55,142 nt of DNA from a virus (lineage: Duplodnaviria > Heunggongvirae > Uroviricota > Caudoviricetes). A program made the translations under genes and the position numbers. Within the stretch, counting starts at the first letter, position 1. Every line of letters begins with the position of its first letter. This document shows, piece after piece, positions 2,856-54,454 of this stretch. The notes beneath the pieces are model-generated. The model saw only the letters and a program-made list of their open reading frames with translations, did no database searches and was not told the DNA's origin. The stretch is from the IMG/VR virus record IMGVR_UViG_2711768053_000019; one strand, given 5' to 3'.

Positions 2856-3015
2856 ACAGCCCCCGTTTATTATTTATCTCCTCAGCCAGCCGCTGTGCTT
2901 TCAGGGGATTTCGGATAACAGAAAGGCCGGGAAATACCCAGCCTCGCTTTGTAACGGAGTAGACGAAAGTGATCGCGCCTACCCGGATATTATCGTGAGG
3001 ATGCGTCATCGCCAT
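2848..3015 (-). CDS. Small ORF (55 aa) coupling exo and methyltransferase
   Basis: Hand-translated [26 protein letters not shown]...; GGAG SD 4 nt upstream; overlaps exo stop and methyltransferase start; below ORF-track length cut-off. Confidence 0.3.
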
Positions 3016-3686
3016 TGCTCCCCAAATACAAAACCAATTTCAGCCAGTGCCTCGTCCATTTTTTCGATGAACTCCGGCACCATCTCGTCAAAACTCGCCA
3101 TGTACTTTTCATTCCGCTCAATCACGACATAATGCAGGCCTTCACGCTTCATGCGCGGGTCATAGTTGGCAAAGTACCAGGCATCTTTTCGCGTCACCCA
3201 CATGCTGTACTGCACCTGGGCCATGTAAGCCGACTTTATGGCCTCGAAACCACCGAGCCGGAACTTCATGAAATCCCGGGAGGTAAACGGGCATTTCAGC
3301 TCAAGGCCATTGCCGTCACTGCATAAACCATCGGGAGAACAGGCGGTACGCATACTTTCGTCGCGATAGATGATCGGGGATTCAATAACATTCACGCCGG
3401 AAGTGAACTCAAACAGGGTTCTGGCGTCGTTCTCGTACTGTTTTCCCCATGCCAGCGCCTTAGCATTAACTTCCGGAGCCACACCGGTGCAAACCTCAGC
3501 CAGCAGGGTGTGGAAGTAGGACATTTTCATGTCAGGCCACTTCTTTCCTGAGCGGGGCTTTGCTATCACGTTGTGAACTTCTGAAGCGGTGATGACGCCG
3601 AGCCGTAATTTGTGCCACGCATCATCCCCCTGTTCGACAGCTCTCACGTCGATCCCGGTACGCTGCAGGATAATGTCCGGTGTCAT
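3006..3686 (-). CDS. exo: Lambda-type exonuclease (Red alpha), 226 aa
   Basis: Translation matches my recollection of lambda Exo essentially throughout ([40 protein letters not shown]...). Confidence 0.95.
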
Positions 3687-4468
3687 GCTGCCACCTTCTG
3701 CTCTGCGGCTTTCTGTTTCAGGAATCCAAGAGCTTTTACTGCTTCGGCCTGTGTCAGTTCTGACGATGCACGAATGTTGCGGCGAAATATCTGGGAACAG
3801 AGCGGCAATAAGTCGTCATCCCATGTTTTATCCAGGGCGATCAGCAGAGTGTTAATCTCCTGCATGGTTTCATCGTTAACCGGAGTGATGTCGCGTTCCG
3901 GCTGACGTTCTGCAGTGTATGCGGTATTTTCGACAATGCGCTCGGCTTCATCCTTGTCATAGATACCAGCAAATCCGAAGGCGAGACGGGCACACTGAAT
4001 CATGGCTTTATGCCGTAACATCCGTTTGGGATGCGACTGCCACGGCCCCGTGATTTCTCTGCCTTCGCGGGTTTTGAATGGTTCGCGGCGGCATTCATCC
4101 ATCCACTCGGTAACGCAGATCGGATGATTGCGGTCTTTGCGGTAAATCCGGCATGTGCAGGATTCGTTGTCCTGTTCAAAGTCCATGCCGTCAAACTGCT
4201 GGTTTTCGTTGATGATGCGGGACCAGCCATCAACGCCCACCACCGGAACGATGCCGTTCTGCTTATCGGGGAAGGCGTAAATTTCTTTCGTCCACGGATT
4301 AAGGCCGTACTGGTTGGCGACGATCAACAATGCGATGAACTGCGCATCGCTGGCATCACCTTTAAATGCCGTCTGGCGAAGAGTGGTGATCAGTTCCTGT
4401 GGGTCGACAGAATCCATGCCGACACGTTCAGCCAGCTTCCCAGCCAGCGTTGCGAGTGCAGTACTCAT
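3683..4468 (-). CDS. bet: Lambda-type Bet (Red beta) single-strand annealing protein, 261 aa
   Basis: [48 protein letters not shown]... matches recalled lambda Bet; ATGA overlap with exo. Confidence 0.95.
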
Positions 4469-4473
4469 TCGTT

Positions 4474-4770
4474 TTATACCTCTGAATCAATATCAACCTG
4501 GTGGTGAGCAATGGTTTCAACCATGTACCGGATGTGTTCTGCCATGCGCTCCTGAAACTCAACATCGTCATCAAACGCACGGGTAATGGCTTTTTTGCTG
4601 GCCCCGTGGCGTTGCAAATGATCGATGCATAGCGATTCAAACAGGTGCTGGGGCAGGCCTTTTTCCATGTCGTCTGCCAGTTCTGCCTCTTTCTCTTCAC
4701 GGGCGATCTGCTGGTAGTGACGCGCCCAGCTCTGAGCCTCAAGACGATCCTGAATGTAATAAGCGTTCAT
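4474..4770 (-). CDS. gam: Gam (RecBCD inhibitor), 98-aa short form only
   Basis: [56 protein letters not shown]... matches recalled lambda GamS; the N-terminal extension of GamL is absent. Confidence 0.9.
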
Positions 4771-4845
4771 GGCTGAACTCCTGAAAATGGCTGTGAAAAA
4801 ATCGCCCGCGGAATGCCAGGCTGATTAGGAAAACAGGAAAGGGGA

Positions 4846-5256
4846 TTAGCGATTCAGGCCGTTACCGCGTCCGTCGAGAAAAACTTCCACGAGCAAATCA
4901 CGGGTATAAGTGCGCTCGATGCCGCGATGCAGATATAGCCGTCCGCGTAAATTAGCTGATGCAGTCCAGGTACCATCTTTGTGTTTGACCAGCATTCCTG
5001 GCATGACCGCACCGCGATTAACGGTCTGCGTTCCGTAATGTTGATGAGCCATAAAAACTCCTGCCCGTAAGCTGGGCTGCTGAACATATAAAGACTTCTG
5101 CGCATATTCAGGCGGTGGATGGCCGCCGGTTGTCATAACTAAGCCGCCTCGTTGAAGCGACTGAGGTATGAAATGTTGAGTTAATTTCAGCTGGTCACAC
5201 CGACGTTCACGCGTCCGTTTCACCCCTCGCACTCCCCGAAGCCTGCTGAAATTCAA
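4846..5256 (-). CDS. Hypothetical protein, first gene downstream of putative pL; true start uncertain (TTG at 5256 or internal)
   Basis: 136-codon ORF; N-terminal Arg-rich stretch RLRGVRGVKRTRERR; occupies the position where lambda has N/kil but no recognisable N. Confidence 0.4.
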   Translation of the reverse strand: MNFSRLRGVRGVKRTRERRCDQLKLTQHFIPQSLQRGGLVMTTGGHPPPEYAQKSLYVQQPSLRAGVFMAHQHYGTQTVNRGAVMPGMLVKHKDGTWTASANLRGRLYLHRGIERTYTRDLLVEVFLDGRGNGLNR

Positions 5257-5329
5257 GCTGCGGATCTAAGCGGTCATCGCAACGGTGAATCAGGTGGTTG
5301 CCGTATCGTTGTGTTGTTGCGATATGGTG

Positions 5330-5375
5330 ATAATAGCTATTGCTATTGGTGATATCAATACTTATTGCTATTAGT
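5330..5375 (-). promoter_or_regulatory. Candidate leftward early promoter pL with operator-like repeats (OL)
   Basis: Minus strand TTGATA (5353-5358), 17-nt spacer, TATTAT (5330-5335); spacer carries GCTATTGCTATTGG; second TTATTGCTATTAG copy at 5362-5374. Confidence 0.45.
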
Positions 5376-5502
5376 TGATGTGTTTTGATATTAAATGTTT
5401 GATAGCAAAAAGAATTAATTTTGTGACTTGCATCGCATAGCGATAACTGAAGTGAGGTCGTGGTGGTTTTTTGAACGGTGTGTGATGAGGGGAGGGCAAA
5501 AG

Positions 5503-5527
5503 AAAACCCGGCACGGTGGCCGGGTTT
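5503..5527. terminator. Bidirectional intrinsic terminator-like hairpin downstream of the cI operon
   Basis: AAAACCCGGC-ACGGTG-GCCGGGTTT: GC stem flanked by A-run and T-run. Confidence 0.5.
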
Positions 5528-5601
5528 AGATGATTGGTTAAGAGCGAGGGTAATGGGGAATGAAAAATCGCTTTACCTAATGCAAGGGTGCGAGCATTTT
5601 C

Positions 5602-6045
5602 TTAAGCACTAAAGAAAAAGTACATTGATAGCTTATAAAGTCCTGTTCCTGCAGCGATGATTGCTGGAACACCAAGCAATACCGCAAGCTTTGCGTCTGA
5701 AATCTTTCTATCGACAGCATCACTTGATGGCTTGTTTGTTAAGGATTCTTTTATAGAGTCCAGACGTGCAAGAATAGTTATCATATTTTTGTCGATAGCT
5801 TTAACGTCTGTTTTAAGTTCATCAACGTCTCGTTTGATATGAGCAACATCGGACTCCAGTTTTGCAACTTTTTCAGGCATGTTATCACTCCCAGACCCAC
5901 TGCTACCACTTGATTGTAGCATGTCCCATCTTTTTCCAGATATACCTGCTAGCTGGGAAGACGCACTGGAGTGCAAACAAAATGATTTTGCCGCCTTTGC
6001 AATTTTATCATTTAGGTTTGGAGCTTCGTAATAATCGTGTTTCAT
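5602..6045 (-). CDS. Coiled-coil protein with C-terminal transmembrane helix (147 aa), third gene of cI operon
   Basis: Gly/Ser linker, heptad-like EKVAKLESDVAHIKRDVDELKTDVKAIDK, hydrophobic tail LAVLLGVPAIIAAGTGLY; architecture resembles XhlA-like membrane proteins. Confidence 0.55.
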   Translation of the reverse strand: MKHDYYEAPNLNDKIAKAAKSFCLHSSASSQLAGISGKRWDMLQSSGSSGSGSDNMPEKVAKLESDVAHIKRDVDELKTDVKAIDKNMITILARLDSIKESLTNKPSSDAVDRKISDAKLAVLLGVPAIIAAGTGLYKLSMYFFFSA

Positions 6046-6057
6046 AATTAATTACGA

Positions 6058-6321
6058 TTAGTTTGTTTTAGCTTTGTCATGCTGGTCGCGAATGAAGTCA
6101 GCCAATTTAAGCATCAATTCTTCGGGCATTCTAATGGTTGCAATGTTGTACTTTATGTTCTCAACATCGTCACTTTCATCAACAGGCCATTCAGTTACAT
6201 TATGAAAAAAAGAAATTGAACCTAGGCGCTGAGAGCCGTCACCAAACGAAGAGTAGCCAAACGCGTCGGCGTATGCATCGACACAGTTATTTGATTTTTT
6301 AACAAGTGTTTTATTACTCAT
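6058..6321 (-). CDS. Small acidic hypothetical protein (87 aa), second gene of cI operon
   Basis: ATG with AAGG SD; 12 nt upstream of next gene; same strand as repressor. Confidence 0.5.
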   Translation of the reverse strand: MSNKTLVKKSNNCVDAYADAFGYSSFGDGSQRLGSISFFHNVTEWPVDESDDVENIKYNIATIRMPEELMLKLADFIRDQHDKAKTN

Positions 6322-6403
6322 TTTTTGCCTTTCCCGTAATGTTATTTTTTATAAGGTATTTTCTTCAGCGTATTACCCAAAAGCCTCATCAACACGCGGC
6401 TGA

Positions 6404-7096
6404 TTATCCGTGTTTTCTGTACGTCTGCGGCATGCTCCCAATAACCTTACCGAATATGAATACCCGGTTCATCTCGTCTTTCTCGATCGGGTCCCACGGT
6501 GAGTAGCTCTTGTTATCAGAGATAACCAGTAGCTTATCCTTCATCATTTGCAGGCGCTTTACATGGGCGGTGTCGTCATACAGAAACGCATAGATACCAT
6601 CACCGTCGAAAGATTTAACCGTGATATCAACGAACAGCAGATCACCTGGTTCGATCGTTCCTGACATGCTGTCACCGCGTACGTTAATGATGCGGATATT
6701 TTCTGCCTTCCTACCATCGAACATGTGACGAGCATCGTCAAACGAGTACTCAACCGAGCGTAGAACTTCTACAAACTCACGGTTGATGACTCCCGGCCCG
6801 GCACTCACTTCTATATCAAGAACGTCAATCTTGAAGTATTTTGAATGGCTGACAGCAGGCTTCCCTGATTGTTGACCGTCATTTCTCATCGGGCCTATGC
6901 CTGATGAGAGCCATTCTGTTCGAACACCCAATGCATTAGCTATTTCAACAATTTTTGTTGAGCCGCGAGCGTTGCCGCTTGTCAGTCTCCAGATTGTGGG
7001 TTGAGCTACGCCAGACGCCTTTGCAAGAGCGCCTTGAGACATTCCAGATTGTTCCATCGCTAGGTTTAAGCGATCAGCAAGAGTTTCTTTTTTCAT
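6404..7096 (-). CDS. cI: CI-like prophage repressor (HTH + LexA/S24-like C-terminal domain), about 231 aa
   Basis: N-terminal HTH (MSQGALAKASGVAQPTIWRL), C-terminal RGDSMSGTIEPGDLLFVD and KRL typical of S24 autocleaving repressors; ATG 7096 lies about 9 nt after a -10-like element (near-leaderless, as for lambda cI). Confidence 0.85.
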   Translation of the reverse strand: MKKETLADRLNLAMEQSGMSQGALAKASGVAQPTIWRLTSGNARGSTKIVEIANALGVRTEWLSSGIGPMRNDGQQSGKPAVSHSKYFKIDVLDIEVSAGPGVINREFVEVLRSVEYSFDDARHMFDGRKAENIRIINVRGDSMSGTIEPGDLLFVDITVKSFDGDGIYAFLYDDTAHVKRLQMMKDKLLVISDNKSYSPWDPIEKDEMNRVFIFGKVIGSMPQTYRKHG

Positions 7097-7102
7097 AAGT
7101 TT

Positions 7103-7176
7103 TAATTTATACGCTTGCGTATTGATGGTCAAAACACGTTTTGCTATTGCTTGGATTAATACGCATTGCTATTATT
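7103..7176. promoter_or_regulatory. Divergent immunity control region (pRM-like / pR-like promoters with operators)
   Basis: Minus TTGACC (7127-7132) and TATAAA-like -10 (7105-7111) before cI; plus TTGCTT (7147-7152), 17 nt, TATTAT (7170-7175) before cro; repeated TTGCTATT motifs and palindrome ATACGC-TT-GCGTAT (7109-7122). Confidence 0.5.
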
Positions 7177-7206
7177 TATTCATTGCAATACCAATAGGAA
7201 TTGATA

Positions 7207-7434
7207 ATGACAAATCAAACCATTCAACTCGCAATCAGTATTACAGGTAGTCAAAAACGACTGGCAGATCTATGCGGTGTAGCCCAACCCACAGTTTGGC
7301 GTTGGCTACACGGTGGCGGAATTGATGCCCGCTATGTAATGAAAATTGTCTCAGCCACTGGTGGAAAGATTAAACCAGCAGATATTCGTCCCGACCTCGC
7401 ACCATTGTTTAACGCGAGTAATTCTGCCGCCTAA
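7207..7434 (+). CDS. cro: Cro-like HTH regulator (YdaS-like), 75 aa
   Basis: HTH QKRLADLCGVAQPTVWRWLHGG; AGGAA SD 8 nt upstream; divergent from repressor. Confidence 0.75.
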   Translation: MTNQTIQLAISITGSQKRLADLCGVAQPTVWRWLHGGGIDARYVMKIVSATGGKIKPADIRPDLAPLFNASNSAA

Positions 7435-7458
7435 ACTGCGGCGTTAATTGATAAGGCA

Positions 7459-8004
7459 ATGACTATGCAACCACTTACATACCAACAGACTAGCGGATTT
7501 AGCCCGACTGCGGTGATAAATCGTTCTCAAACAAAACAGGCGCCAGGCCACGAAAAAATCCGTGATGCCGTTCGCGCCTGGTCGGCTGCAGATAATCAGG
7601 ATGTTGTTGCCGCACTCATTGTGAATGAGTATCGGGAGCAGGGCGGCGGCACCATCGATTTCCCTGATGATGTCAGCCGTGCACGCCAGAAGCTGTTCCG
7701 CTTCCTCGATAACAAATTCGATTCTGAAAAATACCGAAATAACGTGCGTGAACTGACCCCGGCAATTCTGGCGGTACTACCGCTGGAATATCGCGGCCAC
7801 CTGGTTGAGCAGGATAGCTACATGGCTCGGCTGGCTGAAATGGAAAAGGAACTCAGTGAGGCAAAACAGGCTGTCATTCTCAACGCACCACGCCACCAGA
7901 AACTGAAGGAGATGAGTGAAGGCATTGTGTCGATGTTTCGTGTGGACCCGGATTTGGCTGGTCCACTGATGGCGATGGTCACCACCATGCTGGGGGCAAT
8001 ATGA
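7459..8004 (+). CDS. CII-like regulatory protein (YdaT/CP76-type), 181 aa
   Basis: Position immediately after cro and before O; family assignment is from recollection of Rac ydaS-ydaT arrangement and is not verified. Confidence 0.5.
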   Translation: MTMQPLTYQQTSGFSPTAVINRSQTKQAPGHEKIRDAVRAWSAADNQDVVAALIVNEYREQGGGTIDFPDDVSRARQKLFRFLDNKFDSEKYRNNVRELTPAILAVLPLEYRGHLVEQDSYMARLAEMEKELSEAKQAVILNAPRHQKLKEMSEGIVSMFRVDPDLAGPLMAMVTTMLGAI

Positions 8005-8090
8005 CAGGTTCGGAAATGGCGAAAGCCGGTCTGCGCGAACAGAACCGACTTTCAGGTGCAAATCGTAACACACTCATTGCGGGAGGAATT

Positions 8091-9020
8091 ATGGCAAACA
8101 CTGCTGAGATATTCAATTTTCCAGTGCCGGATGTGGCACAAAAGGAGCGGCGCGTGGCAGATCTCGACGATGGTTATACGCGCATTGCAAATGAGTTGCT
8201 GGAAGCTGTGATGCTGGCCGGATTAACACAGCACCAGCTTCTGGTCTTCCTGGCTGTCATGCGCAAAACATATGGCTTTAATAAAAGACTGGATTGGGTG
8301 AGCAACGAGCAACTTTCCGAATTGACCGGGATATTGCCGCACAAGTGTTCTGCTGCAAAAAGCGTTCTGGTAAAGCGTGGGATTCTTATTCAGAGCGGGC
8401 GGAATATCGGCATTAATAATGTGGTCAGTGAATGGTCAACATTACCCGAATCAGGTAAGAAAAATAAAGTTTACCTGAAAGAGGTAAATTTACCTGAATC
8501 AGGTAAGAAAAGTTTACCCAAATCAGGTAAAGGCGTTTACCCGAATCAGGTAAACACAAAAGACAAACTAACAAAAGACAATATAAAACCTTTTTCGTCC
8601 GAGAATTCTGGCGAATCCTCTGACCAGCCAGAAAACGATCTTCCTGTGGTGAAACCAGATGCTGCAATTCAGAGCGGCAGCAGGTGGGGGACAGCAGAAG
8701 ACCTGACCGCCGCAGAGTGGATGTTTGACATGGTGAAGACCATCGCGCCATCAGCCAGAAAACCGAATTTTGCAGGGTGGGCTAACGATATCCGCCTGAT
8801 GCGTGAACGTGACGGACGTAACCACCGCGACATGTGCGTGCTGTTCCGCTGGGCATGCCAGGACAACTTCTGGTCCGGTAACGTGCTAAGTCCGGCCAAA
8901 CTCCGCGACAAGTGGACCCAACTCGAAATCAACCGTAACAAGCAACAGGCAGGCGTGACAGCCGGAAAATCAAAACTCGACCTGACAAACACTGACTGGA
9001 TTTATGGGGTGGATTTATGA
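8091..9020 (+). CDS. O: Replication initiator O (lambda O-like), about 309 aa
   Basis: MANTAEIFNF...VADLDDGYTRIANELLEA resembles recalled lambda O N-terminus; GGGAGG SD; internal iterons encode the LPESGKK repeats. Confidence 0.85.
   Translation: MANTAEIFNFPVPDVAQKERRVADLDDGYTRIANELLEAVMLAGLTQHQLLVFLAVMRKTYGFNKRLDWVSNEQLSELTGILPHKCSAAKSVLVKRGILIQSGRNIGINNVVSEWSTLPESGKKNKVYLKEVNLPESGKKSLPKSGKGVYPNQVNTKDKLTKDNIKPFSSENSGESSDQPENDLPVVKPDAAIQSGSRWGTAEDLTAAEWMFDMVKTIAPSARKPNFAGWANDIRLMRERDGRNHRDMCVLFRWACQDNFWSGNVLSPAKLRDKWTQLEINRNKQQAGVTAGKSKLDLTNTDWIYGVDL
8442..8553 (+). repeat. Replication origin iterons inside O (five copies of TTACC(C/T)GAATCAGGTAA-like 17-mer) followed by AT-rich stretch
   Basis: Copies start at 8442, 8471 (degenerate), 8490, 8514, 8537; each is an inverted repeat TTACC...GGTAA; AT-rich region 8554-8600. 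Confidence 0.75.
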
Positions 9021-9718
9021 AAAACATCGCCGCACAGATGGTTAACTTTGATCGTGAGCAGATGCGTCGGATCGCCAATAACATGCCGGAACAGTACGAC
9101 GAAAAGCCGCAGGTACAGCTGGTAGCGCAGATCATCAATGGTGTGTTCAGCCAGTTACTGGCAACTTTCCCGGCGAGCCTGGCTAACCGGGACCAGAACG
9201 AACTGAACGAAATCCGCCGCCAGTGGGTGCTGGCTTTCCGGGAAAACGGGATCACCACAATGGAACAGGTTAACGCAGGAATGCGCGTAGCCCGTCGGCA
9301 GAATCGACCATTCCTGCCATCACCCGGGCAGTTTGTTGCCTGGTGCCGGGAAGAAACATCCGTTACCGCCGGGCTGCCAAACGCCAGCGAGCTGGTTGAT
9401 ATGGTTTACGAGTATTGCCGGAAGCGTGGCCTGTATCCGGACGCAGAGTCTTATCCATGGAAATCAAACGCGCACTACTGGTTGGTTACCAACTTGTACC
9501 AGAACATGCGGGCCAATGCGCTGACTGACGCGGAATTACGGCGCAAGGCTGCCGATGAACTGACCTGTATGACAGCGCGAATTAACCGTGGTGAGACGAT
9601 ACCTGAACCAGTAAAACAACTTCCTGTCATGGGCGGTAGACCTTTAAATCGTGCACAGGCTCTGGCGAAGATCGCAGAAATCAAAGCTAAGTTCGGACTG
9701 AAAGGAGCAAGAGCATGA
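9017..9718 (+). CDS. P: Replication protein P (DnaB helicase loader), 233 aa
   Basis: MKNIAAQMVNFDREQMRRIANNMPEQYDEKPQVQ... matches recalled lambda P; ATGA overlap with O. Confidence 0.95.
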   Translation: MKNIAAQMVNFDREQMRRIANNMPEQYDEKPQVQLVAQIINGVFSQLLATFPASLANRDQNELNEIRRQWVLAFRENGITTMEQVNAGMRVARRQNRPFLPSPGQFVAWCREETSVTAGLPNASELVDMVYEYCRKRGLYPDAESYPWKSNAHYWLVTNLYQNMRANALTDAELRRKAADELTCMTARINRGETIPEPVKQLPVMGGRPLNRAQALAKIAEIKAKFGLKGARA

Positions 9719-9835
9719 AAGACAACTGTGTTAAGTTCTCGTTAACATTAGGGGTAACATAGGGAGTATAAGATAGTGGAATGCATCATTTTATTGTTGC
9801 GAAAATGATCGAACCAACTGGATATCGTGTATCAT

Positions 9836-11809
9836 ATGGAACCGATGATAACTTTCATGGAATGTCTCGGTATATATATGAAAATTAGACCACAGCAGCA
9901 CCTAATTAACATCCTGACTTCAACCAAACAACATCATCCAAATTTTACTCTTTTTCTTGGTGCAGGTGCTAGTATCTCAAGTGGTGTTGATAGTGCTGGT
10001 GGGATGATAAGGCGCTGGAGAGATGCTTACACTCTAATGTATGGAGAAGATGCTCTCAAAAAACAAGTTTGGTACGATAAAGATAATGAGTATTCAGAGC
10101 TTTTTGAAGCATTATATGATCAACCAACTCAAAGAAGAGAATTTATTGAAAGTTGTATTACCGCAGCTAAACCATCTTGGGGATACGTTTATCTCACAAA
10201 TCTATTGGATAAAGGCCATTTTAATACAATTTTTACGACTAACTTCGATGATTTAGTCAATGAAGCTTGCTTTACCTTTTCTAATAATCTGAGACCAATA
10301 GTGTGTGCCCACGATTCAAGTATCAACAGCATACGTTTAACCACAGCTCGGCCAAAAATAATAAAATTACATGGTGATTTTTTATTTGACAATATCAAGA
10401 ATACTATAAGGGAGCTTGAGTCACTTGAAGATAACATGAGGGCCAAATTTAGACAGTTTGCAACTGAATTTGGCATGATCGTTATTGGGTACTCGGGACA
10501 CGACCGTTCAATTATGGATACTCTCAATACGTTATTGCATTCCGGTAGTTGTTTTCCTCATGGGATTTATTGGTGTATCCGTGACTCAGACACTGAAAAA
10601 CTTTCTGAGCAACTTAAAAATCTGGCCCGCTTTCCTCATTTTCATCTTATTAAAATTAATGGATTTGATGAGTTCATGGCTGAATTACATTACGCATTAG
10701 GCTGTAATTTGCAGCAAGAGGTAGTAGAGCCATACTCTGCATTATCTAATAAACTAGATAGATATTTCTCTATAGCTGAAGAAGATGACGCAGATGTCCA
10801 GCATGAGATTATTAAAAGAGATATGAATAATCTTGCTGATCATGTCAGGAGAGTGAATACAGTAAGCCAGTTTGTAAAAAAAATAAAAGTACTTCTTTCA
10901 GAGAAAGACTCATCGTTAGATGATAATTCGATCACTAAATCTTTAGAAATAATGTTAAAGGAAACTAAATTTGCTGGTTCTCCTGAGGGGATTCATTTTT
11001 ATAATACCCCCAATTATTTGATTGCAAACTCTGCATTTCGTGCTGGAGAGTATAATGAATGTGTAGAATATGCTACTAAACATCTGGCTAATGGGAAATC
11101 TCTCGAAACAGAAGTATTAATACTTCGTTCCTATATTCATTTGGATAATGATTCTGAAATACAAAAGTCAATAGAAAGAATAACAAGTTATAACAAAATG
11201 AATGATGGTGAAGTTGGCAAGCTTGTAAATGGATTAGTGGACTTAATGGATGCTAAAAAATTCAAAATTGCGAATAGCCTTATGGACATACTTGAATCCC
11301 GAACAATACCGTCTAAACATAAGCAGTTATTGCTTATAAATAGAGTTCTTTGCAACAAATTACAAAAGCAGCCGCTTTCAGCAAAACAGCAACAAGAGCT
11401 TGAGGAAGTGCTGAATGAAGTGATAGATAAAAACGAAGCTTGGCTTGCTCTGGGGGCTGCTATACTTTTAGAAAAATGGGACATTGCTGAAGAAGTGCTA
11501 TCAGCATTAGATGAAACTGAGATAGTTACAATATTGACGCAATCAATGCCGATTTTTGACTTGATTTCTACAGAGTTTTATGAAAAGGTCAAGCTAGTAG
11601 CTATAGAGCGTGGTTATAACGTTTCATTCGAAGAAGAAACGGAGTTACCAGAGGTTGTTCCTGCTGAGGATGAGACTCAAAGTCTCAGTCCTGATGTGAG
11701 AGAAATACCTACAGATAAAAAGAAAGCCATAACTCACAAATCAGCAGACAATGATGAGGCATTTGATGGATTACGCACTGGCGAAGAAAGTATAAGCAAA
11801 CCAGCTTAA
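9836..11809 (+). CDS. SIR2-like domain protein with long helical C-terminal region (about 657 aa); candidate single-gene anti-phage NADase
   Basis: LFLGAGASISSG, FTTNFDD, IKLHGDF and VIGYSGHD align with conserved SIR2/ThsA-type motifs (GAGxS, TNYD, HG); no clear SD so start 9827-9875 is uncertain; region visibly AT-rich. Confidence 0.7.
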   Translation: MEPMITFMECLGIYMKIRPQQHLINILTSTKQHHPNFTLFLGAGASISSGVDSAGGMIRRWRDAYTLMYGEDALKKQVWYDKDNEYSELFEALYDQPTQRREFIESCITAAKPSWGYVYLTNLLDKGHFNTIFTTNFDDLVNEACFTFSNNLRPIVCAHDSSINSIRLTTARPKIIKLHGDFLFDNIKNTIRELESLEDNMRAKFRQFATEFGMIVIGYSGHDRSIMDTLNTLLHSGSCFPHGIYWCIRDSDTEKLSEQLKNLARFPHFHLIKINGFDEFMAELHYALGCNLQQEVVEPYSALSNKLDRYFSIAEEDDADVQHEIIKRDMNNLADHVRRVNTVSQFVKKIKVLLSEKDSSLDDNSITKSLEIMLKETKFAGSPEGIHFYNTPNYLIANSAFRAGEYNECVEYATKHLANGKSLETEVLILRSYIHLDNDSEIQKSIERITSYNKMNDGEVGKLVNGLVDLMDAKKFKIANSLMDILESRTIPSKHKQLLLINRVLCNKLQKQPLSAKQQQELEEVLNEVIDKNEAWLALGAAILLEKWDIAEEVLSALDETEIVTILTQSMPIFDLISTEFYEKVKLVAIERGYNVSFEEETELPEVVPAEDETQSLSPDVREIPTDKKKAITHKSADNDEAFDGLRTGEESISKPA

Positions 11810-11958: not shown

Positions 11959-12540
11959 TAACTATTGGCCAGTTTTTAATGAAATCATGCTTAATACAAT
12001 GTGATTTTTTTCACTTGTCGTAGTGCCGATCTGATTGCCATCGTCACAGGTACTCAGTAGCGAAAAAATACGTCTACTGGGTACCAATTATCCTCAATGA
12101 GAAGTGCAGCGCGCTCTAATAAAAAGGTGATTCACCGACAGCGAACTTTGTACACTCGCTTGGTTATGGCGAGCAGGTGATGCTAACCGCCTGCCAGAAT
12201 GTCACTCCACTTCCTCAAGTATCTGAGCGACGTGAAGCCGGTGGCTTGACTTACATCGAGCAAAAATATTTCCTGGCTCACAATAGGGTGCGAGCAATCG
12301 ATTCAGAACGGTATTAGAGCTGCTAATGATCCTTCATATTGCGCCTAAATCCACAAAATTGATTTTCAATAATCAACCCGCCATAATCATCTCATCGGAG
12401 CCTGAACAACTCCGGTGACTTCTGCGCTAAACGGGGACGTTTATGCGCACACACAATCCAAACTCACTTCTCCCGTCACAGATGCAGAAATGCACCTGCA
12501 ATTCTTTGCATCTAACGTTTGACCTCTGCGGAGGTGAAGC

Positions 12541-53878: not shown

Positions 53879-54454
53879 ATGGATTTCAGAATGAGTGAAC
53901 AACCACGGACCATAACAATTTATAATCTGCTGGCCGGAACTAATGAATTTATTGGTGAAGGTGACGCATACATTCCGCCTCATACAGGTCTGCCAGCAAA
54001 CAGTACCGATATTGCACCGCCAGATATTCCGGCTGGTTTCGTGGCTGTTTTCAACAGTGATGAGTCATCGTGGCATCTCGTTGAAGATCATCGGGGTAAA
54101 ACGGTTTATGACGTGGCTTCCGGCGACGCGTTATTTATTTCTGAACTCGGCTCATTACCGGAAAATGTCACCTGGTTATCCCCGGAAGGGGAGTTTCAGA
54201 AGTGGAACGGCACAGCCTGGGTGAAGGATACGGAAGCAGAAAAACTGTTCCGGATCCGGGAGGCGGAAGAAACAAAAAACAGCCTGATGCAGGTAGCCAG
54301 TGAGCATATAGCGCCGCTTCAGGATGCTGTGGATCTGGAGATCGCAACGGAGAAAGAAACCTTGTTGCTGGAAGCCTGGAAAAAGTATCGGGTGTTGCTG
54401 AACCGTGTTGATACATCAACTGCACCGGATATTGAATGGCCAGCCCTACCGTAG
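53879..54454 (+). CDS. tfa: Tail fibre assembly protein Tfa, about 191 aa
   Basis: [54 protein letters not shown]... lambda Tfa by recall. Confidence 0.8.

Follow-up and report, generated by a model that had tools for sequence, protein, structure and literature searches.

Operator-like palindromes and a probably leaderless repressor start in the immunity region of a lambda-like prophage

Introduction

In a 55,142-bp stretch of DNA from a phage of the Caudoviricetes (IMG/VR record IMGVR_UViG_2711768053_000019; the whole stretch is referred to here as the window), a preliminary description made from the sequence had drawn attention to an operator-like motif repeated on both sides of a leftward gene for a putative repressor, in what would be a left (OL) and a right (OR) operator region. 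What these repeats are part of, which protein would read them, and where the repressor gene starts are the questions that the locus raises. We conclude that the repeated octamer, TTGCTATT, is one half of a 16-base putative binding site for the repressor, and that such sites lie on both sides of its gene in a lambda-like prophage. Taken as a whole, the region in all likelihood acts as the switch that governs immunity in a lambdoid prophage, in which a cI-type repressor would act on 16-bp imperfect palindromes and would be translated from a leaderless start.

Results

The repressor gene and its neighbors

The repressor gene occupies positions 6404 to 7096 on the minus strand and encodes 230 amino acids from an ATG at 7096. 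Pfam assigned the product HTH_3 (1.8e-6) and Peptidase_S24 (1.3e-18) domains, and its PDB matches were the 434 repressor and UmuD. As expected of a lambdoid cI-type protein, an N-terminal helix-turn-helix is joined to a C-terminal LexA/UmuD-like S24 autopeptidase. The former is a 434-like five-helix domain with the recognition helix QPTIWRL at Q32-L38; residues 6-66 align to residues 2-62 of the 434 repressor, the best solved-structure match of this domain (E ~1e-5). In the latter, the translation shows an Ala99-Gly100 cleavage site and a Ser/Lys dyad consisting of Ser143 in GDSM and Lys180 in VKRL.

Divergent from the repressor gene and separated from it by 110 bp (7097-7206) is a cro-like gene on the plus strand (7207-7434) whose 75-residue product was placed in the YdaS helix-turn-helix family by Pfam, PHROG 35, and RefSeq annotation. 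It is followed by a cII-like gene of the YdaT family (7465-8004) and then by O and P. Downstream of the repressor gene on the minus strand are two accessory ORFs of 87 (6058-6321) and 147 amino acids (5602-6045), each belonging to a PHROG family of unknown function. This slot (5602-6321) is that of rexAB in lambda, and its content varies among relatives. A terminator-like hairpin with a T run at 5504-5527 on the minus strand would end the repressor operon ahead of OL, beyond which kil (4846-5052, phrog_294) and then gam, bet, and exo follow leftward.

No N gene was recognized in this phage, and the long pL leader showed no similarity to the put antiterminator RNAs of HK022 and HK639. An Rfam search of the whole window at gathering thresholds returned IS009 at 54222-54420 only, with nothing in the region discussed here. 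The YdaT box TTGATTN6AATCAA of CP-933P had seven matches against 3.7 expected, which is not significant; one of them overlaps the cro start.

Predicted promoters and the start of the repressor mRNA

When positions 5000-7500 were scanned for consensus promoters, only two promoter-like matches were obtained, both on the minus strand and both at the hexamers earlier proposed for pL and pRM. The predicted pL (5330-5358; 10/12) consists of a -35 TTGATA (5358-5353), a 17-bp spacer, and a -10 TATTAT (5335-5330), from which a transcript is predicted to run leftward from ~5323 toward kil, gam, bet, and exo. The predicted pRM (7104-7132; 9/12) has a -35 TTGACC (7132-7127), again a 17-bp spacer, and a -10 TAAATT (7109-7104). 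The latter hexamer was chosen because it is in the sole register that retains TAnnnT in variant relatives together with a 17-bp spacer; TATAAA, the register implied in the preliminary description, was rejected in its favor. On the plus strand, pR (7147-7175) was assigned by eye, with a -35 TTGCTT (7147-7152), a 17-bp spacer, and a -10 TATTAT (7170-7175), and is predicted to start near A7182. Its -35 is weak (3/6) and lies below the threshold of the scan. The arrangements TTG(A/C)TA-17-TATTAT at pL and TTGnnT-17-TATTAT at pR are both kept in relatives.

The -10 of pRM does stand just before ATG 7096, as had been claimed, although the gap measured from TAAATT is 7 nt (AAAACTT) rather than about 9. 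The TTGACC-17-TAAATT-7 nt-ATG arrangement is conserved. Among 37 related loci from Enterobacterales, described below, the gap between TAnnnT and ATG was 7 nt in 34 and 6 nt in the other three, while the intervening 7-mer occurred in 26 versions; base -1 was a pyrimidine in all 37, and the codon was always ATG. A Shine-Dalgarno-like stretch was seen in one of 34 loci checked (L033, with GGAGG in operator and spacer). It is because of this conserved -10/ATG geometry around a variable 7 nt, the lack of a Shine-Dalgarno sequence, and the pyrimidine at -1 that we consider the repressor gene very probably to start at the first base of its mRNA. The pRM transcript would begin at, or no more than one base from, the A of ATG 7096, so that the repressor mRNA would be leaderless, as is that of lambda cI. 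That A is the eighth, not the seventh, base following the -10, and the transcript may carry a 1-nt leader.

It is improbable that translation begins instead at TTG 7132, or on a leadered transcript from a promoter farther upstream, with TTGACC and TAAATT being promoter-like coding sequence. In favor of this reading, the frame stays open as far as TTG 7132, the start annotated in the BTP1 record is the equivalent upstream one, and a cII/YdaT-dependent establishment promoter would yield a leadered transcript during infection anyway. Yet neither TTG 7132 nor ATG 7096 is preceded by a Shine-Dalgarno sequence, and the 12 codons before the ATG correspond exactly to OR3 plus the promoter hexamers. 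Moreover, in three of the related loci (L022, L032, and L038) the frame is interrupted by a stop between the -35 and the ATG, with no start codon in frame in that interval, and L033, also with an in-frame stop upstream of the ATG, offers as an in-frame start only a GTG located two codons before the ATG, in the gap between -10 and ATG. The 434-like domain begins at residue 6 as counted from the ATG, which is the start used by RefSeq and in the ST104 and Klebsiella phage records. In BTP1 lysogens, cI and bstA form one operon driven from a single start detected by dRNA-seq (PMC7067206). ATG 7096 is thus the best start, and TTG 7132 is accounted for, as the preliminary description had it, by the first half of the conserved pRM -35 hexamer. 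Three different repressor starts are in use in public records. An N-terminal peptide beginning MTINTQAYKLKL would be incompatible with the start at ATG 7096.

The repeated octamer is half of a 16-bp imperfect palindrome

All strings quoted in the preliminary description were found where it placed them. The octamer TTGCTATT has exactly four matches in the window, at 5340, 5365, 7141, and 7166, all on the plus strand. The number by itself does not exceed chance (2.0 expected, with 4 reached in 15 of 100 shuffles), whereas the placement is non-random, with one pair to the left and one to the right of the repressor gene and a spacing of exactly 25 bp within each pair. Every octamer forms, with an inverted partner 8 bp away (AATAGCTA, AATACTTA, AATACGCA, and AACACGTT), an imperfect palindrome of 16 bp in which the octamer is the better half. 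The dyad pattern AATASSNNNNSSTATT, with at most one mismatch allowed, gave six matches against 1.1 expected, all within the two regulatory regions, a count reached in none of 100 shuffles. The proposal of an operator-like motif common to OL and OR was therefore upheld, as two 25-bp pairs each lying over a predicted early promoter, with the functional unit now refined to a 16-bp imperfect inverted repeat of which the octamer is the consensus half.

On the right, the 110-bp intergenic region holds three such dyads at 25-bp spacing over the predicted promoters, each recognized both as a dyad and by a matrix trained on the five window sites OL1, OL2, and OR1-OR3, for which the scores of these same sites are circular. 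OR3 (7108-7123, TATACGCTTGCGTATT) lies in the pRM spacer and over the first 2 bp of the pRM -10, where its occupancy would be predicted to shut off pRM. The palindrome ATACGC-TT-GCGTAT that had been described as an additional element in the pRM spacer is indeed present (7110-7123); it is OR3 and belongs with the other operators rather than being an element of its own. OR2 (7133-7148, AACACGTTTTGCTATT) is directly adjacent to the pRM -35 and extends over 2 bp of the pR -35, and OR1 (7158-7173, AATACGCATTGCTATT) spans the pR spacer together with 4 bp of the pR -10. On the left, beyond the repressor operon, OL1 (5332-5347, AATAGCTATTGCTATT; 21.3 bits, as a training site) overlaps the pL -10 by 4 bp and takes up most of the spacer, and OL2 (5357-5372, AATACTTATTGCTATT), 25 bp away center to center, covers 2 bp of the pL -35. 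pL and pR accordingly have mirror-image geometry, O1 covering 4 bp of the -10 and O2 covering 2 bp of the -35; the outer TATT of the operator forms part of the -10 (TATT+AT), and TT+G forms the beginning of the -35.

Since P2-type repressors read direct repeats, the functional elements might be conceived of as the same-orientation octamers themselves, 25 bp apart. The four exact copies do all lie on the plus strand at both OL and OR, and in OR2 conservation, at -52 from the ATG, is limited to the TTGCTATT half, which is all that distant relatives keep. We nevertheless regard this reading as very unlikely, for every copy has its inverted partner, and OR3, without any TTGCTATT, is yet a near-perfect dyad at the expected position in the 25-bp periodic array. 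Left halves (AATAC/AATAG) are also conserved in relatives, and in some of their OL sites the consensus half is on the opposite side. The protein, too, has a 434-like helix-turn-helix and an S24 dimerization domain, and repressors of this class bind dyads.

The operator arrangement follows the recognition helix

The matrix was run on related phages and on 37 genomic loci from Enterobacterales, spanning Kluyvera to Proteus, Morganella, and Xenorhabdus. The same layout, with sites at -27, -52, and -77 from the repressor ATG together with an OL cluster, was found in the 37 loci, which gave 120 matrix matches within the 4,772 bp that immediately precede the ATG and 113 elsewhere, all but 17 of the latter in OL-type clusters (272,938 bp scanned). 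OR3 stood at -27 in nearly all relatives, OR1 had counterparts at -77, and those of OL1 were at the same place as in the window; the OL clusters comprised two to four sites. Outer operator bases were kept, while central bases and the spacers between sites varied. Three sites at 25-bp spacing and an OL cluster were also present in PhiR68_2, BTP1, ST104, and Klebsiella phi8.2, which have the same N-terminal domain, and in a Yersinia phage the three OR sites were 24 and 25 bp apart. By contrast, the matrix found nothing above 11 bits in HK022, PhiR5_1, ST15-VIM1phi2.1, or HK639.

Among 21 loci examined with AATAGC-type sites, 20 encode the recognition helix AQPTIWRL, and the other (L032) has AQPSIWKL. 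The repressor of PhiR5_1 is 100% identical from residue 88 on, has a different helix-turn-helix, SQAAIQKI, and its OR carries unrelated repeats. PhiR5_1 would thus represent a natural specificity swap in which helix and operators changed together.

These comparisons bear on whether the Cro-like YdaS protein, or some other factor, is the main reader of the sites, with the cI-type repressor recognizing a different element in this region. Because a repressor and its Cro-type partner have operators in common, co-occurrence alone cannot separate Cro from repressor, and in the closest relatives the cro family is found together with the sites. Even so, this explanation has very little to recommend it, slightly less than direct repeats: the sites track the recognition helix of the repressor, as in PhiR5_1, where the rest of the protein is identical, and the dyad-pattern and matrix searches found no further repeated element common to OL and OR. 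Chance similarity of A+T-rich promoter regions, which the unexceptional octamer count would allow, can be practically dismissed, being already contradicted by the exact spacing and identical promoter overlap at both loci, the shuffled dyad counts, and a layout kept in 37 diverged loci with variable spacers.

Candidate sites at the outer edges

Left of the repressor gene, relatives have a full OL3 20 bp from OL2, where this phage has a half-site with one mismatch (5386-5393, TTGATATT). A full OL3 was rejected here, as no complete 16-mer scored at that spot, and the site has apparently decayed. Farther out, 44 bp from OL2, is a weak site of 9.0 bits (5401-5416, GATAGCAAAAAGAATT), kept in relatives as GATAGCnAAnGGAATT, which we infer may be functional as an operator.

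Right of OR1 is a candidate fourth site, site X (7187-7202, AATACCAATAGGAATT), at approximately +6 to +21 of the predicted pR transcript and overlapping the cro Shine-Dalgarno sequence (AGGA, 7196-7199). It scored 16.9 bits though outside the training set, the next best elsewhere in the 55 kb being 12.3. Matches were found at -105/-106 in 21 relatives, and the (A/T)ATAC half was kept in 32 of 32 upstream regions with variable flanks. Site X and the distal OL site each combine one consensus half with one AATTC half, and they might tentatively be viewed as conserved outlying putative operators at the distal edge of each cluster, although we consider this rather unlikely. If repressor or Cro does bind them, the architecture would be 4+4 (here 4+3), like the four palindromes of CP-933P, and protein bound downstream of the pR start may act as a roadblock or aid OL-OR looping.

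Discussion

The repressor and cro genes diverging from a short gap with pRM, pR, and several dyads, and the second cluster of the same operator family over the leftward promoter are the hallmarks of a lambdoid cI-type switch. From this arrangement we infer repressor binding, cooperativity, order of occupancy, pRM activation, and transcription start. A dimer of the repressor, whose DNA-binding domain resembles that of 434 and whose S24 domain for autocleavage and oligomerization resembles that of HK022, would bind 16-bp imperfect palindromes of consensus AATAGCAA·TTGCTATT. In the lysogen, repressor bound cooperatively to OR1 and OR2 and to OL1 and OL2 would block pR and pL, at both of which O1 lies over the -10 and O2 over the -35. 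Repressor on OR2, directly upstream of the pRM -35, may stimulate pRM; as pRM is near consensus, much closer to it than is pRM of lambda, the need for such activation is doubtful. At high concentration the repressor would fill OR3 as well and turn pRM down, and the YdaS-type Cro would presumably act on the same sites.

The likeness to lambda extends to the repressor gene between leftward and rightward early promoters, with O and P replication genes following, to O1 and O2 sites overlapping the lytic promoters, to an S24 autocleavage domain in the repressor, to a -10 immediately before the ATG with no Shine-Dalgarno sequence, and to a tripartite OR whose OR3 is centered ~-19.5 from the repressor start, compared to ~-19 in lambda. 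The operators, however, are 16 bp rather than 17 bp and unrelated in sequence, their spacing is a regular 25/25 bp compared to 24/23 in lambda, strong OL sites number only two, and proteins of the YdaS and YdaT families stand in for Cro and cII. Phage 434, despite the likeness of its repressor's N-terminal domain, differs in its recognition helix (QQSIEQL) and in its operator, a 14-bp ACAA...TTGT as opposed to the 16-bp sites of other sequence found here.

The repressor is 40% identical to HK022 cI overall, mainly through its C-terminal domain, and the same -10/7 nt/ATG geometry is found in HK022, HK639, and PhiR5_1. The N-terminal DNA-binding domain differs, the HK022 immunity region has no matrix site, and a far-right operator downstream of cro was not detected in this phage, in contrast to HK022. 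The two phages do not have the same operator specificity, which defines the HK022 immunity group, and have the C-terminal domain alone in common. The 44-bp gap before the distal OL site is reminiscent of the set-apart OL site of HK022, for which an OL2-OL3 distance of 53 bp is quoted from Carlson and Little (1993) in PMC8053113.

The same Cro (YdaS) and cII (YdaT) families make up the PaaR2/YdaS/YdaT switch of CP-933P (PMC8630535, PMC9986795). There, four equally spaced palindromes lie between the divergent promoters, the pL hexamers resemble those of pR (PMC8630535, PMC9986795), and 5' RACE together with N-terminal sequencing demonstrated that the repressor gene is leaderless (PMC8630535). 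PaaR2 is a small repressor, however, unlike the full cI-type helix-turn-helix plus S24 protein encoded here, and the CP-933P palindromes are 18 bp with the consensus GTTTAGTAA.

The closest counterparts are the Salmonella phages BTP1, ST104, SE1, and ST160 and the E. coli phages PhiR68_2, PhiR30_1, 4A7, and Perceval, which are of the same immunity type, with repressors 86-100% identical and the same three OR and two OL sites. The accessory genes that they have between cI and OL, such as bstA in BTP1, are not the ORFs of this phage, and the Salmonella members have N/gene 24 and P22-type replication genes. Of 5,426 complete E. coli genomes, 719 carried the same OR. Our literature search found no published binding, footprint, or transcript-start data or operator map for this immunity type, and full-text searches for the operator strings returned unrelated primers only. 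The immunity type is a common one, and the reading given here is correct but ordinary, adding nothing conceptually to the lambda paradigm.

Its use lies in the particulars. What sequence analysis has established here, namely where the sites are, how they stand statistically, how far they are conserved, and how they co-vary with the recognition helix, pertains to an immunity type that BTP1, a Salmonella phage from the epidemic ST313 lineage, also has. Together, the operator consensus, the site coordinates, and the start codon would make immunity groups predictable from sequence, would set right inconsistent annotations of the repressor start, and would provide ready-made targets for footprinting and for orthogonal repressor-operator parts.

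Gene layout of the immunity region

The window holds a lambdoid prophage. Genes exo, bet, gam, and kil lie on the minus strand at 3006-5052, as does the cI-type repressor gene at 6404-7096, which is followed in order by a YdaS-family cro (7207-7434), a YdaT-family cII analogue (7465-8004), O (8001-9020), and P (9017-9718). Directly downstream of P, an ORF of 660 aa (9827-11809, plus strand) encodes a SIR2-like domain (PF13289, 6.8e-14) and may be a moron for anti-phage defence that occupies the ren position. Two accessory ORFs (5602-6321, minus strand) fill the slot separating the repressor gene from OL, the left-hand operator region. The 147-aa accessory ORF may be truncated, since it aligns only to the C-terminal half of PHROG 3556 (positions 128-267 of 276). 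In BTP1 the same slot is occupied by bstA, and in PhiR5_1 by a HipA-like pair. Predicted pL and kil (4846-5052), the first gene, are separated by an untranslated leader of ~270 nt (5053-5323, minus strand), which had no similarity to the HK022 and HK639 put RNAs. No gene resembling N was recognized. The sole Rfam family match in the window was to IS009 RNA, at 54222-54420 (218 bits).

Predicted operators and promoters

The preliminary description proposed that OL and OR share operator-like motifs, and all of the strings it quoted were found in the sequence. The string TTGCTATT has just four copies in 55,142 bp, all on the plus strand (5340, 5365, 7141, and 7166), a count not above chance (2.0 expected). 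The copies form two pairs flanking the repressor operon, the members of each pair spaced exactly 25 bp apart, and every copy supplies the right half of an imperfect 16-bp palindrome. The predicted operators are OL1 (5332-5347, AATAGCTATTGCTATT), OL2 (5357-5372, AATACTTATTGCTATT), OR3 (7108-7123, TATACGCTTGCGTATT), OR2 (7133-7148, AACACGTTTTGCTATT), and OR1 (7158-7173, AATACGCATTGCTATT), with centers exactly 25 bp apart in both OL and OR. Together their 10 half-sites yield the consensus AATA(G/C)(C/G)(A/T)A, which in its best form, AATAGCAA, corresponds to the reverse complement of TTGCTATT. When no more than one mismatch was allowed, the pattern AATASSNNNNSSTATT matched six times against 1.1 expected, a number reached in none of 100 shuffles, and all six matches fell inside the two regulatory regions. 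Because 16-bp dyads recur at these exact distances, the palindrome earlier described as an additional element is OR3 itself.

A consensus scan of 5000-7500 returned only two promoter-like matches, both on the minus strand, and these were the pL (TTGATA-17-TATTAT, 5358..5330) and pRM (TTGACC-17-TAAATT, 7132..7104) already put forward. Predicted pR was located by eye as TTGCTT (7147-7152), 17 bp, and TATTAT (7170-7175). In pR and pL alike, O1 spans the spacer and overlaps the -10 by 4 bp, and O2 overlaps the -35 by 2 bp; the outer TATT of the operator is the TATT within the TATTAT -10, and its last TT is that within the TTG of the -35. At pRM, OR3 sits in the spacer and touches the -10, and OR2 ends one base short of the -35. 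The same operator/promoter logic is found at lambda OR, and by analogy we infer that the order of operator occupancy and its consequences would be as in lambda.

Operator conservation in relatives

A weight matrix trained on the five window sites only was then run on other loci. In PhiR68_2, BTP1, ST104, and Klebsiella ST11-VIM1phi8.2, whose repressors have a closely related N-terminal domain, the matrix located three OR sites at 25-bp intervals together with an OL cluster, and in Yersinia phage YenM06.16-1 it located three OR sites spaced by 24 and 25 bp. No match above 11 bits was obtained in HK022, PhiR5_1, ST15-VIM1phi2.1, or HK639. A search with the N-terminal 90 residues of the repressor, one genome per species, gave 39 loci spanning Kluyvera, Citrobacter, and Enterobacter to Proteus, Providencia, Morganella, Xenorhabdus, and Symbiopectobacterium. 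Of these, 37 (272,938 bp) were scanned at a threshold of at least 12.5 bits. The 4,772 bp immediately upstream of the repressor ATG held 120 matches, located at -27, -52, -77, and -105/-106 from the ATG; all except 17 of the 113 matches elsewhere lay in OL-type clusters of two to four sites, 0.8-3.2 kb downstream. When 32 distinct upstream regions were aligned, the outer operator bases were fixed and the central bases and inter-site spacers variable, which is the pattern of a classic footprint.

The matrix also pointed to AATACCAATAGGAATT (7187-7202), a candidate fourth right-hand operator which was not in the training set and scored 16.9 bits, versus at best 12.3 elsewhere in the window. On the predicted pR transcript it spans approximately +6 to +21, with the cro Shine-Dalgarno inside, and all 32 relatives retain its (A/T)ATAC half although the flanks vary. 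A comparable hybrid site, GATAGCAAAAAGAATT (5401-5416), marks the distal edge of OL and is kept in relatives as GATAGCnAAnGGAATT. The OL layout in relatives is distal site, 24 bp, OL3, 20 bp, OL2, 25 bp, and OL1, a full OL3 often being present; the window equivalent is a half-site alone, TTGATATT (5386-5393), probably a decayed OL3. The outlying sites at 7187-7202 and 5401-5416 are candidates for protein binding; the four equally spaced palindromes of CP-933P provide a precedent. The CP-933P YdaT box, TTGATTN6AATCAA, is matched with a single mismatch at 7201-7218, over the cro ATG, and perfectly at 12359-12376, its count in the window not being significant (7 versus 3.7 expected).

Start of the repressor gene

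No Shine-Dalgarno precedes either ATG 7096 or TTG 7132. A TAnnnT hexamer precedes the conserved ATG in all 37 loci, at a distance of 7 nt in 34 and 6 nt in the other 3, and in relatives a TTGACC-type -35 lies 17 bp further upstream. The 7-mers in between vary (26 versions), and position -1 is C or T in every locus. The same -10/6-7 nt/ATG geometry was seen in HK022, HK639, and PhiR5_1.

Translation from TTG 7132 would open a longer frame, and BTP1 is annotated in this way; the TTG is in frame with the ATG only because 6+17+6+7 = 36. Three relatives (L022, L032, and L038) have an in-frame stop between the -35 and the ATG and no in-frame start codon in between, and in a fourth (L033) the sole in-frame start upstream is a GTG two codons before the ATG, which makes an upstream TTG start impossible in these four. 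Together with conservation of the -35 in relatives, this supports the earlier proposal that TTG 7132 is better explained as the pRM -35 than as a start. RefSeq annotates the ATG as the start, and the alignment to the 434-like domain begins at residue 6. Public phage records are inconsistent on where this gene starts: PhiR68_2 uses internal Met19, BTP1 the upstream TTG, ST104 the ATG, and the Yersinia phage a position 23 codons upstream, with an extension that crosses the phage's own OR sites. CP-933P shares the YdaS/YdaT module, and its repressor gene was found to be leaderless by 5' RACE and N-terminal sequencing (PMC8630535); in BTP1 lysogens, cI-bstA forms one operon that has a single start (PMC7067206). 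A leaderless repressor mRNA beginning at ATG 7096 is thus well supported, though not proven; a one-base leader is possible, because the A of the ATG is the eighth base after the -10.

Repressor specificity and immunity type

The repressor has the Pfam domains HTH_3 and Peptidase_S24; among solved structures, the nearest to its N-terminal domain is the DNA-binding domain of the phage 434 repressor, and the nearest to its C-terminal domain is UmuD. Identity to HK022 cI is 40%, chiefly in the C-terminal domain, and HK022 immunity was ruled out by the differing N-terminal domain and operators. The immunity type of the window is shared by BTP1, ST104, SE1, ST160, and several coliphages sequenced recently; among 5,426 complete E. 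coli genomes, 719 carry the same OR. We found no paper mapping the operators of this type. The region is very probably a switch of the lambda type whose operator specificity is new, a reading rated correct but unsurprising.

Of the 21 loci with AATAGC-type sites that were examined, 20 have an unchanged recognition helix, AQPTIWRL, the exception (L032) having AQPSIWKL. The PhiR5_1 repressor (2932-3687 of that locus) is 100% identical to the window repressor from residue 88 to the end at 230, with a different helix-turn-helix (SQAAIQKI), and its OR has unrelated repeats and zero matrix matches. The PhiR5_1 repressor is a natural recombinant, differing in both helix-turn-helix and operators, and it provides a ready-made specificity-swap control.
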